Source of the DNA: Eledone cirrhosa
Lineage: Eukaryota
DNA: 64,000 nt
Assembly (NCBI GenBank): GCA_964016885.1
Contig: OZ024740.1
Location: 111,972,001 to 112,036,000 of the forward strand
Reading direction: 5' to 3'
Within the stretch, counting starts at the first letter, position 1, and the number at the start of each line of letters is the position of its first letter. Position numbers and translations under genes: made by a program. The notes beneath the pieces are model-generated. The model had not been told where the DNA came from, made no database searches, and saw only the letters and a list, made by a program, of their open reading frames with translations. Below, piece by piece: positions 1 to 48,029 of the stretch.

Positions 1-860
1 GCGCACTAACACTGCCAGCCATCACCAAAGCACGCTGCCTGCACGTATAGGTCGCAGTCCCCAAATCTGCCAACATTCCCAACGTGAGAGGCTATGTCTG
101 CTGACTGACTGTCCCTTCACTCATCTCCTGGGACACAACACACGAACAGAAAAAGGGGCTTTATGCCAACCCACAAACCACAATAAAGTCACCCCCTGCT
201 GCGGTAATGCTGCTCTAGTCTCCTCACAAAGACATGACTACAACAACAAAAACAACAAAAGTAATGCTGCTCCAGTCTTGTCACAAAGACACGATCACAA
301 CAACAACAAATACAACAACAACAAAAATAAAGCTGCTCCAGTCTTTTCACAAAGACACAATTACAACAAATACAACAACAACAACAACAACAAAAGAGGG
401 AACTGCAACTCTATCCAATGTTGTAACCACAAATCCAATCAAAAACTGCTCCCTGAACAAAAAAACAAAAGAGATAGAGAAAAACATTTTAGCCATCACC
501 CAACACCATCCTTGCTGTCACTAACACACAATCACAAAACAAACCCCCTGCAACAGTCAAAGGCACCCACCACACTAGCCTCCACATTCTTACTCAATAC
601 ACAAGGTATCAGCCCTTTCATCAATGCACAGAAATGGAAGATCCAATTCATTGAGGATTGGGTTGGTAACCATCCATTTCACATCCCCTTCTTCATTCTT
701 ACTGAGACCCACCTTGACAACTCCCACTTGGAGGCCGAAGTAAGAGTGAGAAATTTCACAACCATCCGTGCGGATCGTATTGGAAGGTGGGAACTGCCAT
801 TTTCCTGCATGATTCCTTTACGGCAGATGGCAACACAACATTCTCTAATGGATACTGTGA
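1..860 (+). mobile_element. Decayed LINE 5' fragment: Cys/His-rich ORF1-like remnant plus the N-terminus of an APE endonuclease
   Basis: ORF 278-991 contains LLNTQG...ILTETHL...IRADRIGR, followed after a frameshift by GTAIFLHDS. These match APE N-terminal motifs (NxxG, xETxL, RxDR..GG). PQICQHSQRERLCLLTDCPFTH near 60-125 resembles a CCCH finger. Confidence 0.6.
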
Positions 861-1790
861 ACAAATGCACCGACGCTAGAGACCGAGACACACACACCAC
901 ACATTTCCTGGAAGTACTTAAACTGAACGGATACACGACATCCACCGCAAACCGTGCCAGAAAGAACAGAGGACACCACCCGAGGCACTAACACTTGCTT
1001 CCTGAAGCTCCCACACTTCAGTGACGAAACAACAACAGCCATCCGCAGAGCTATCAAACGAGAGGGACTCGATATCCAACTGGCCCACTCAGGTCCTTCT
1101 CTACGCGGAATGCTAACCAAAAGACACTCCACCAGACATGACAACCGCTGCAGGCTAGCCAACTGCCCCATCAACGACACAGACCTATGCCACCAGGCTT
1201 ACGTCGTATACAGACTATAGTGCGTCAAATGCAGCAACTTTACGTAGGTAGCACCACCAGACCACTTCACATAAGAATAAAAGAACACCTCAATACTAAC
1301 GCTTCCTCATTTAAGAAACACCTAGTTAAATGCAAAAACACCGACAAAACATAACAGTTAGGATAGAAACTAAGGAAAGAAACCTCGGCAATCTTAGAAT
1401 TAAGGAAGCACTAATTATAGACAAAACACAACCACCAATCAATAATAGACTAGAACCCAACACCCAATTTATAACTTGATAGAGCATCTAGCTCCGTATT
1501 TACACCCCCTTCCCCCACACACACACGCGCACGCACGCACACACGCACACACACGCTTACACCTTCACTTATTCTCTCTCTCACACACACATACAAAGAC
1601 CAGTTCTAACACGAGAGAACATCTATCCAACACATTTACGTATCGACATATCTTCTCACACTCACACACACACACACACATACTTGTCTGACGAACGAAT
1701 GAGGACGTTTCTTGTATTCGTCTTATTCGGGAAACCTCTGGTAATGAGGTAATTATATTGTATTGTTTATTATACATTATATATATATAT
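860..1790 (+). mobile_element. 5'-truncated Penelope-like element (RT thumb/linker + GIY-YIG endonuclease + 3' pseudo-LTR), decayed
   Basis: Across frameshifts it reads LKLNGY...FLKLPHFS...CRLANCP...LCHQAYVVYRL*CVKC..FYVGSTTRPLHIRIKEH (GIY-YIG with Cys linker). It ends in a hammerhead motif and then (TA)n. Confidence 0.85.
1685..1754 (+). ncRNA. Type I hammerhead ribozyme motif in PLE 3' pseudo-LTR
   Basis: CTGACGA (1688-1694); stem II CGAATGAGGACG/CGTCTTATTCG; GAAA (1731); stem III CCTC/GAGG; GUA triplet. Stem I is weak. Confidence 0.7.
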
Positions 1791-1875
1791 ATATATATAT
1801 ATATATATATATATATATATATATATATATACTCAATACTTAGGGTAGTAGAGTGAGAAATAGGAATAAGTATGA

Positions 1876-1969
1876 CCCCGACGGCAGAGCTCTAGCCGTT
1901 TCGACGGCTATTTCTGGACTAAATTAGAATTTTTAGCCTGGTGAATAAATAGCCGAACTTGTCAAGGGG
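1876..1969 (-). ncRNA. Type I hammerhead with U3-A8 core (UUGACAA)
   Basis: Minus strand: CCCC-TTGACAA-G..CGGCTATTT(loop)AAATAGCCG.C-GAAA-CGGC..GCCG-TC-GGGG. Confidence 0.75.
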
Positions 1970-45305: not shown

Positions 45306-47380
45306 TATATATATATATATATACATAGAGAGAGAGAGAGAGAGAGAGAGAGAGAGAGAGCTGAAGATCCGCATAAGGTGAAACATTTGTTCTCGGTATG
45401 GTGCACTTAACGTGTATGTGCGACCTTAGATTACGGGCTCCATTTATGGCCACCACAGTATAGTGGAGGAGCCGTTTTAATACTAGCCTCTCATTGAGTG
45501 ATATATGATAACAGTTGATCTGCTCCCATACCAGAGATTCATGAAGCCAGTGCTTATCCCTCTTTGATAGGTGCTATGTGGCTGAGATTCCTTGTCCTGG
45601 AGAGTATGCCACACCATCACAGGGTAAACCAACCCCACCCTACAATTTCTGCTAGTATTCATTTTCAGCTGAGTGGAATGGAGCAACCGATAATGAAGGG
45701 CTTTGCTCCAGAAAACAATGTGCCTGCGGTCAAGGAATCGAACTCACCACATTAGGATTGCAAGCTCAAGAGCTTAACCAAATACGCACATACAAACCCA
45801 CAATAACATGCGCTCCGAAATACACAGACCCACACACACATAGGATCCAACTAAAGACATACATAAATGCAGAGAGAGAGAAACACACTCGTGCATACAT
45901 ACACACACACACATATATGTGTGTGTGTGTGTGTGTGTGTTTGTGTATGTATACACACACATACAAATATATATGTATATAAACACACATACATATGGAG
46001 GAAGCCAGAGAGAGAAATTGGCAGTTAATTGAGCAGGCCATCATTTGAATAATCTAATAGTGTACCGCCTACGTAGAATTAAGGAGACGTAAATAGCCGT
46101 CTGGCATCTAGATCATAGGTGGGGTAGCTGTGTGTGTGGGGGGTGCGTGTGTGCGTGTGTGTGTGTGTGTGTGTGTGTGTGTGTGCAGAGGGATGCATAT
46201 GTGGTCGTGATGTCTCTCTCTCCCTCCCTCTCTCTCTCTCCCTCCCTCTCTCTCTCTCGCCCTACCCCTCTCTCCTCCCTCTCACCCTCCACACACACTT
46301 ATAAATGCATATACATATTTTACTATAACAATGGCAATATCATCAGCAACATGCATATATATTTACACAACCACTCATGTAGACACTATATAACATGCAT
46401 ACACAATTATGCATACCATCGATATATGGAGGCCTGTCATCTACACACATATATATACACATATATATACACACATATATATACTGCTAAAACAGCAACA
46501 TGCATATAATATACTTATACCAACTCTTCCATTCACACACAAATGCATAAACACACACACGCGAGCTTTTAGTGACATGTATGTTTGATATAGGTGTGAA
46601 TATAATATATATATATATATATATATGTGTGTGTGTGTGTATATATATATATATATATGTGTGTGTGTGTGTGTGTATATATGTGTGTATATATATATGT
46701 GTGTGTGTGTGTGTGTGTGTGTGTGTGTATATATATATGTGTGTGTGTGTGTGTGTGTATATATATGTGTGTGTGTATATATATATGTACACGTACTTAC
46801 ATATATGTATACAGACGTACAGTAGTATGTATATATATATATATACATACATGCACACATATATATATGTACGTATGGATTCACCGAACATTTATTATAA
46901 TGCTCGGTGTGTTTGTAAACAAACATCCCGTATTAAGCCGTAGTGTCTAACAAGCATCGTTGCTCGTTTGTTCAACACTGACAAAGGTACGCTGTACTAG
47001 TTTCAAGCTTATTAGCTATCGTCATATATATATATATATATATATATATATATATATATATATGTATATATAGTAATAAGAATATTTATATATGTTTGAT
47101 ATAACTATAAATATGTAGGGTAGTACTAAGTACTACCCGGATATCGGTATGACACACACACACACACACACATATATATATATATATATATTTATATATA
47201 TATATATATATATATATATATATATATATATATATATATATATATTAGAAAGTGAGGTTTTTTTTACAAAATGAAAAATAACCGAGGTGACCTACACGAG
47301 TAAAAGTATAAAGAAAAGGAGATGAAATCGAAAATGCAACTGGAGTCTTATTTAAAAAAAATATATATATTTATTTGGTT

Positions 47381-47418
47381 CCTTTACCGGTTTCGCAGTT
47401 CTTCTGCTTTTCAAAAGG
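47381..47418 (-). ncRNA. Minimal hammerhead with U3-A8 core
   Basis: Minus strand: CCTT-TTGAAAA-GCAG-AAGAA-CTGC-GAAAC-CG-GTA-AAGG. Confidence 0.8.
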
Positions 47419-48029
47419 TGAGTTGAGATGGAGGGTCTGTGATATACATATATATACACACACACACACATATATATATATATATATATATATATATATA
47501 TATATATATATATATATATATATATATATATATATATGTATATATAGTTATGCCTTATATAGTGGTGTATATTATAGTTGTGTCTAATGTGGATGCGTAT
47601 ATAGCTATGATATGTCTGATGTAGATGTGTTTACACGGCCTTGTCTGATGTACCTGTACGTAATCTTCTGTCTGAGGTAGGTATACATATATACAGCTAT
47701 GGCCTATGTAAAAGTGTATATAACTGTCTGATGTAGATGAATATACAACTGTTTTTTTTTGTTTTGTTTTCTGAAAGAGGTGTATAATCACCTCTAACAC
47801 GGCACCGTCAACACCACCAACTCACACACACACATACGTCACCACTACCACCACACATGTTCAACATCATCATCAACACCACCACAACCATCATTAATAC
47901 TACCATCACCACCACCACCACCCTCACCGCCACAACCATCATTAATACTACCATCACTACCACCACAACCACCACCATTAACACGACCATCACCACCACC
48001 ACCACCATTAACACTTCCATCACCACAAA

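Follow-up and report, generated by a model that had tools for sequence, protein, structure and literature searches.

What produces the short ribozyme-bearing units that lie in (TA)n microsatellites of the Eledone cirrhosa genome? The question is raised by a stretch of 64,000 nucleotides (nt) from a 443 Mb contig of the 3.0 Gb genome (OZ024740.1, positions 111,972,001 to 112,036,000; hereafter, the window), in which a preliminary description had listed hammerhead ribozyme motifs at 11 positions and had associated them with Penelope-like elements (PLEs). In several families, the units have two fixed 3′ ends, a sharp 5′ boundary (the “wall”) and head-to-head arms with copy-specific junctions, and some families have Hydra-type PLE parents. 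With a probability of roughly 0.65, the hammerhead units represent 3′ ends of many PLE families that inserted in (TA)n; among them, the short units with fixed ends (“minis”) would be cDNAs extending from one of two internal start sites as far as the 5′ end of an RNA, whose predicted start is at the promoter of the pseudo-long terminal repeat (pLTR). The short units are mostly neither random truncations nor self-replicating retrozymes.

Is the hammerhead population real? Matches were sought with a descriptor of type I hammerheads that requires stems I–III and a C3-G8 or U3-A8 core, both in the window and in an unselected genome sample (990 kb) made up of 99 stretches, each 10 kb long and placed at round coordinates. 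Loci outside the window carry L-numbers (e.g., L290 or L142), and families are named A, by number or by window position. The population is real and far above chance: the sample has 125 matches, versus 6 after reversal and 7, 4 and 8 after shuffling. The proposed dense, multi-family population is borne out, with the 125 sampled hammerheads forming 34 families and at least one match in 53 of the 99 stretches. Most cores are C3-G8 (107, versus 18 U3-A8), and stem III is palindromic, being perfectly self-complementary in 69 of the 125. The association with (TA)n also holds: (TA)4 lies within 250 nt downstream of 111/125 sampled hammerheads, as compared with 58/123 upstream and 1,362 of 5,000 random positions. 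Hammerhead density is 126 per Mb (bootstrap 87–175), or 103 per Mb without two tandem arrays, in a count that takes both arms of inverted insertions and leaves out minis with half a ribozyme. Extrapolated genome-wide, after subtraction of ~6 false matches per Mb, this amounts to ~3–4 × 10^5 motifs. That number exceeds the published counts cited here for other animals, which were obtained with different descriptors: 126,247 in axolotl and >6,000 in a coral (PMC7229834), 9,000 in Xenopus (PMC4209133) and, as Rfam matches, 235 in giant squid (PMC6962438).

In the window, a hammerhead-like motif is present at all 11 listed positions, each in a hammerhead family. A type I core with three stems, as the descriptor demands, occurs at six of them (cores 1965(−), 17934(+), 21651(−), 24113(−), 35806(+) and 47414(−)); earlier, stricter versions of the descriptor gave 0 and 2 window matches. 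Controls on the same 47.7 kb gave one match when reversed and 0–1 across 10 local shuffles. The five remaining sites are truncated, variant or decayed family members. Specifically, 5′ truncation has cut stem I of 1685 to 5 nt, and another copy of that family passes the descriptor; 5325 carries a mismatched C3/A8 pair; 15889 is related to 21598 but decayed; the family of 12153 is old, and its members have the core change U4C in common; and 13217 is a decayed copy in a family with a canonical core. The stems had been described as largely unrelated. The sites are indeed multi-family, but there are nine families rather than 11, since 1876 pairs with 5325 and 15889 with 21598. A run of (TA)6 or longer follows within ~200 nt downstream at 10 of the 11 sites, the exception being 17929. 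Rfam gave no hammerhead match in the window at the gathering score; in an E-value scan of the window, microsatellite matches predominated and none of the rows listed (150 of 200) was a hammerhead. Because Rfam misses all of the window's hammerheads, such repeats are likely to be filed as unknown, or as short interspersed nuclear elements (SINEs) or miniature inverted-repeat transposable elements (MITEs). Hammerhead-bearing units and minis of the window are as follows:

1683–1777, plus strand: 5′-truncated 3′ end of a young family, core 1688, ending in (TA)27; other copies (L168, L169, L179) have Hydra-like coding sequence 1.2 kb upstream.
12040–12230, minus strand: old family, minimal hammerhead, U3-A8 plus U4C, weak stem I; 33 candidates at 71–86% identity.
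13110–13320, minus strand: decayed twin-arm mini; the family hammerhead is canonical.
15828–16130, minus strand: relative of the 21598 family, core 15942, inverted second arm at 16083–16129.
17920–18060, plus strand: older family, minimal hammerhead, core 17934; continues upstream in other copies.
21553–22013, minus strand: 3′ end belonging to a young family, with core 21651 and a terminal (TA)33; a coding parent was not found within 1.3 kb.
31457–31658, plus strand: family A twin-arm mini, a short inverted arm plus a long arm, core lacking its 5′ half, flanked on either side by (TA)n.
35684–35887, plus strand: twin-arm mini, inverted distal tail of ~60 nt joined to a sense arm, intact hammerhead, core 35806.
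45358–45400, plus strand: extra minimal hammerhead, core 45361, with (GA)n overwriting part of stem I.
47246–47445, minus strand: single-arm mini with a fixed 5′ boundary and a clean U3-A8 minimal hammerhead, core 47414; longer relatives have a TATA box and, further upstream, a Neptune-like endonuclease remnant.

The hammerhead at 45361, the half-ribozyme mini at 31457–31658 and a non-Hydra PLE fragment at ~560–1450 are additions to the preliminary description. The surrounding sequence is rich in microsatellites according to a repeat scan of the window. Two further units lie between TA tracts: a 3′ half-hammerhead related to the 1685 family (15739–15807, minus strand), and a two-arm unit (15184–15352, also in the flanks of L067 and L082) with a hammerhead-like fold and, judged by eye, an apparent U4A core change in several copies. 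At many loci (e.g., L012, L014, L044, L057 and L087), the (TA)n that flanks one PLE family has received insertions of another, often tail to tail, and clusters have built up.

Which elements do these hammerheads belong to? The window and the sample hold coding sequence of PLEs, in the window as follows:

1832–4066, minus strand: family A Hydra-clade PLE with reverse transcriptase (RT) at 2600–3973, linker plus endonuclease at 2043–2669 and a pLTR whose hammerhead (core 1965) is U3-A8 with a long stem II; a deletion of ~700 nt at 2167/2156; full-length relative L290.
4042–5511, plus strand: 3′ end of a second family A subfamily (~80% identical), initiator-like A at 5374, ending in (TA)20; head-to-head with the 1832–4066 copy.
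21985–23081, plus strand: broken C-terminal fragment of a Hydra-like RT, head-to-head with the 21598 unit.
23957–25225, minus strand: Hydra-clade linker plus GIY-YIG endonuclease (24608–25225), 3′ untranslated region and long-stem-II hammerhead (core 24113), ending in (TA)14.
560–1450, plus strand: broken non-Hydra PLE fragment with thumb, Cys linker and an endonuclease with CxxC and two His (from its translation; clade by eye).

By motif definition, the window's three coding fragments (2043–4066(−), 21985–23081(+) and 24608–25225(−)), which match a set of 93 relatives, are assigned to the Hydra clade, on motifs and a by-eye comparison with a published alignment (PMC8557442). The RWK motif near the N-terminus reads RWR in L290 and the window copy, and RWK or RWR in five relatives; DKG is changed to DKT in the open reading frame (ORF) at 2600–3973 and in L290; and the linker has CxCX5C in L290 and 24608–25225, the third Cys being mutated in the window's first copy. 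A motif check found a C-terminal GIY-YIG domain without CCHH, and with CxxC and CxH around conserved E and N. Against PF01541, the endonuclease scores E 3e-4, below the curated cut-off; a Pfam search of the window's proteins did not recognize the RT. The three fragments had been said to share motifs, which are present, but W-x-NPP is split by frameshifts in the first two and the third comprises only linker and endonuclease. Family A combines a hammerhead in the pLTR with insertion in (TA)n. Indeed, L290, a full-length but broken family A copy, has two hammerheads 3,096 nt apart flanking its ORF, in agreement with the proposal that the hammerheads lie in pLTRs.

Hydra-like coding sequence lies upstream of families A, 1685 and 24006. 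The placement of the system in the Hydra clade thus holds for the window's coding fragments, but some families may link to a Neptune-like PLE instead: upstream of families 47381 and 5 is a decayed, CCHH-type, Neptune-like endonuclease remnant, at three loci (L139, L218 and L050), which may be contiguous with the hammerhead unit. The sequence upstream of 47381 in L074 and L075 was rejected as endonuclease coding sequence and is non-coding. In 10 of the 17 families examined, there is no coding sequence within 1.3 kb upstream. Fragments of other clades occur at 560–1450 (+), in L139 and in L156 (CCHH-type endonuclease, Poseidon- or Neptune-like thumb), and hence at least two or three PLE clades coexist. 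The head-to-head junction at 4042–4066 joins two subfamilies ~20% apart, which suggests either a single event that used two different RNA templates or two separate insertions. Read depth rises near 5374 in one of three runs of unspecified kind, a rise that was not used as evidence.

How are the minis built? Many short units are 130–220 nt long, have fixed ends and are inserted in (TA)n. In the unselected 990 kb, family A has 54 arms in ~35 insertions, of which 19 are two-armed and three extend far upstream (hand count), extrapolating to ~10^5 insertions genome-wide. Relative to the cleavage site, its 3′ ends are at +99 (21 arms) or +20 (20 arms), followed by (TA)n. Its 5′ ends cluster ~40 nt upstream of the cleavage site, within the stem II loop: at loci chosen without regard to family A, 54 of 80 arms start within 12 nt (−46 to −35), with 19 further in and seven further out. 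The wall recurs, given that several family A subfamilies share it. The commonest mini type, the 139-nt mini of family A, lacks the first half of the hammerhead core. For family 47381, a single boundary is found in 23 of the 25 best matches; 34 of 54 arms start at −73 to −63, 12 are fold-back partners at −56 and six extend upstream. For family 3, a fresh search with a query that started inside the core gave 30 loci (four not orientable), with 15–16 of 26 oriented copies starting at −2 to +6 of the wall and ~10 extending. Families 13217 and 35799 have the same two-arm build with a wall. The “inverted termini” had been taken for element ends; they prove to be by-products of insertion, two cDNA arms placed head to head with junctions that vary between copies and often hold a few extra bases. 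Since the junctions differ among copies, each mini is a separate insertion. The build is not that of a MITE with fixed terminal inverted repeats. Two candidate interpretations were rejected: 1685 and 17929 are not units that begin at the ribozyme, the boundary being the window copy's own end, and 35799 is not a parentless self-copying element with terminal repeats, but twin arms with variable junctions.

What does the wall represent? Walls coincide with initiators of the YYANW type, for which the background is 14% within 1 nt. Longer relatives of families 47381, 3 and 5 have a canonical TATA box 30, 31 and 33 nt, respectively, before the wall (hand count; background 0.5% of positions), and in family 3 it is retained across diverged subfamilies. 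All four family 3 arms that start exactly at the A are preceded by G, the longer relative having C at that position, which is what the copying of a cap would produce. In known PLEs, the transcript starts within the upstream pLTR (PMC2377424), and rotifer pLTRs carry a TATA box plus an initiator and form head-to-head palindromes (PMC3846280). The wall is therefore probably an RNA 5′ end, at a predicted transcription start.

The proposed origin can then be laid out as a series of steps. The element endonuclease would nick both strands of a (TA)n tract, and each nick would prime reverse transcription at one of two internal start sites behind an uncut ribozyme (twin priming). The cDNAs would run off the capped 5′ end of the RNA and would then be joined head to head; with a single primer, a one-arm mini would result. 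Since the cleavage site lies within the units, the template must have been uncut or religated. Either of two RNAs may be the template: the full-length mRNA, at its 5′ end, acting in cis and giving a “strong-stop” product of a failed jump to the RNA 3′ end, or a short transcript from a downstream or solo pLTR, acting in trans. Mobilization in trans had been proposed; it follows by necessity for non-coding tandem families, but for minis the data do not separate it from cis. The TATA box is not retained in minis, which are likely to be dead on arrival. In vitro work on Poseidon of Anolis has described two internal sites at which reverse transcription starts, cutting and extension of both strands, and uncleaved RNA as the dominant substrate (PMC11167929).

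Several points weigh against this account. Among six families with known upstream sequence, the TATA box is canonical in only three; it is a near-miss in family A, partial in family 1 and absent in family 21598. The wall of family 5 depends on 4 of 10 arms, and the samples for families 35799 and 5 are not unbiased. The cap-G sign is ambiguous in the fresh search of family 3 and missing from family 47381, whose arms often retain 1–3 nt of sequence before the A; of the 80 arms of family A, 20 extend 1–5 nt past the A. Families 1685, 23292, 2 and, largely, 21598 have scattered or distant 5′ ends and no single wall. Walls, initiators and TATA positions were chosen by eye after the data had been seen, arms of one insertion are not independent, and the genome searches per family, including those behind the wall counts, score only the best 40 candidates. 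Transcription start at the walls is predicted from the DNA sequence.

The alternative that survives best, although it is unlikely, is that minis are self-propagating non-autonomous elements, such as monomeric retrozymes or SINE-like solo pLTRs, that spread via ribozyme-cut or circular RNA with PLE enzymes. True tandem arrays do exist: 310–311 nt units with a minimal hammerhead each occur in L142 and L221 (2/99 stretches; 23 hammerheads), laid out as two head-to-head blocks, and judged by their sequence these arrays fit non-LTR retrozymes, which are known to derive from pLTRs (bioRxiv 10.64898/2026.07.22.740005). The window also contains a non-coding family of partial tandem elements:

23159–23938, plus strand: partial tandem element of 620 nt, young and non-coding, targeted to (TA)n; it has both core halves, in reverse order, and lacks a canonical hammerhead.

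This family, also found at 35910–36017 (−) and in L275–L289, has at least 37 identical copies and two 3′ end sites in (TA)n. Its reversed core halves could be a permuted or a different ribozyme; Rfam gave no match on 23150–24250. Furthermore, coding fragments are rare (11 Hydra-like versus 125 hammerheads in 990 kb), and the flanking (TA)n could in principle stand in for a lost TATA box. However, the dispersed minis are not tandem units with a complete hammerhead each, as the L142 and L221 arrays are; the ribozyme sets neither of their ends, the commonest mini lacks half of the core and junctions vary by copy. The retrozyme-like character proposed for the minis is thus not supported. The apparent absence of a parent for 35799 (25/25 matches) was an artefact of a query that contained the inverted arm.

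A second alternative, slightly less likely again, is that the wall is not a transcription start but an RT stall or processing site (RNA structure, a lariat branch point or a nuclease cut). In family A, the wall falls in the loop of a long stem II and adjoins a pyrimidine-rich AG similar to a 3′ splice site; in families 3 and 13217, it coincides with the start of stem I. By contrast, families 47381, 5 and 35799 have their wall upstream of the ribozyme by tens of nt, and the TATA spacing is left unexplained. The arms keep the AG and so are not spliced exons, which also counts against this alternative. Finally, it is improbable that random 5′ truncation of autonomous PLEs accounts for every short unit; single motifs were interpreted as truncated PLEs by Cervera 2014 (PMC4209133). 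The window's 1685 and 17929 units, most of 21598 and family 23292 (5′ ends over 500 nt) are plain 5′-truncated ends, and 19 of 19 other 1685 copies continue upstream or into an inverted arm, but a shared 5′ boundary exists in several families and the 54/80, 34/54 and 15–16/26 arms within windows of 11–12 nt, with few beyond, refute truncation for families A, 47381 and 3.

The origin as promoter-bounded cDNAs invites a more specific reading, which is tentative and in which we place distinctly less confidence. Minis may be the PLE counterpart of retroviral strong-stop DNA, primed near the 5′ end of the element's own mRNA and run to the cap, with failed jumps inserted into (TA)n by twin priming; they would constitute the densest hammerhead load on record, at ~120 per Mb. 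A successful jump to the redundant 3′ end would make the pLTR. In family A, the start site would split the upstream ribozyme, which would leave the downstream copy as the sole one able to cleave and define the RNA 3′ end. The TATA box of a mini could be restored by a (TA)n tract lying upstream of it. Two analogies come from other element classes and are no more than analogies: in L1 twin priming, two primers at one target site yield inversions, and retroviral minus-strand strong-stop DNA is a short cDNA that extends from a 5′-proximal primer site to the cap.

How does the system compare with those already described? Its parts are known, namely Hydra PLEs, minimal hammerheads, retrozymes and inverted pLTRs; the scale and the fixed promoter-like 5′ boundary are new. 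First, the Hydra clade (PMC8557442) shares the C-terminal endonuclease without CCHH, the RWK-type, DKT, CxCX5C and CxxC-E-N-CxH motifs, the hammerhead and insertion in (TA)n. Its presence in octopus is already known, because the supplement of that paper lists Hydra-1_Obim of Octopus bimaculoides, with a (TA)n preference and a hammerhead. The clade is portrayed there as small, comprising few families and, from octopus, a single consensus (“no pLTR”), whereas many families, mostly promoter-bounded minis, are found here; the ~10^5 extrapolated insertions of one family have no counterpart in the available part of that description. Second, the minimal hammerheads of metazoan PLEs (PMC4209133) are likewise type I, with the U3-A8 variant, an extra base before stem II, a palindromic stem III, many consensus families and mostly single motifs. 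Counts in that work are in the thousands, single motifs are taken as truncated PLEs and, in the portion available, boundaries are unmapped; here, long stem II inserts are common. Third, the 310-nt arrays of L142 and L221 resemble non-LTR retrozymes in their pLTR origin and lack of coding sequence (PMC7229834; bioRxiv 10.64898/2026.07.22.740005), unlike most units here, which are dispersed one- or two-arm insertions with ends not set by the ribozyme. The density of ~120 per Mb compares with 126,247 motifs in axolotl, whose genome is 28 Gb, counted with different descriptors. Fourth, Anolis Poseidon in vitro (PMC11167929) offers the two internal RT start sites, giving an optional tail, the extension of both strands and the uncleaved template, and rotifer Penelope (PMC3846280) the head-to-head inverted pLTRs with a TATA box plus initiator. 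Neither report, in its available text, describes a mass of copies ending at a promoter, and solo pLTRs are ascribed there to recombination or deletion. No account of promoter-bounded PLE minis was found in literature on strong-stop DNA, twin priming, non-autonomous Penelope elements and octopus hammerheads, a search that did not extend to subscription journals, Repbase, Dfam and bioRxiv supplements.

How PLEs make pLTRs and inverted ends, and what role their hammerheads play, are open questions in the field. Fixed-end minis, if formed as proposed, are a clue to PLE replication. With ~10^5 copies per family, they are a large-scale record of RT start sites, RNA 5′ ends and junctions, which makes the strong-stop/jump model testable. 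Single genomic hammerheads need not be active retrozymes; in Xenopus, cleavage was reported for only one of nine predicted dimers (bioRxiv 10.64898/2026.07.22.740005). A recent octopus repeat annotation has no mention of ribozymes in its main text (PMC13282606).

The window holds several other features. A coding exon at 34156–35286 (+) encodes a PDZRN3/4-like RING E3 ligase (RING plus TRAF/Sina zinc finger, Asn-/Ser-rich tail), for which a protein search returned only fish PDZRN3/4 matches, at 34–40%. A dispersed 190-nt SINE-like repeat is abundant and often tandem or nested (7238–7426, 11427–11788, 16222–16625, 18431–18646, 32833–33183, 39593–39812, 41373–41582, 42008–42103, 43765–44909 and 45206–45312). 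A compound TA/GA array of ~2 kb with a higher period of 70 nt occupies 26798–28847, and the end of the window, 48022–64000, is a 16 kb minisatellite of ~411 copies of a 39-nt unit with 92% matches.

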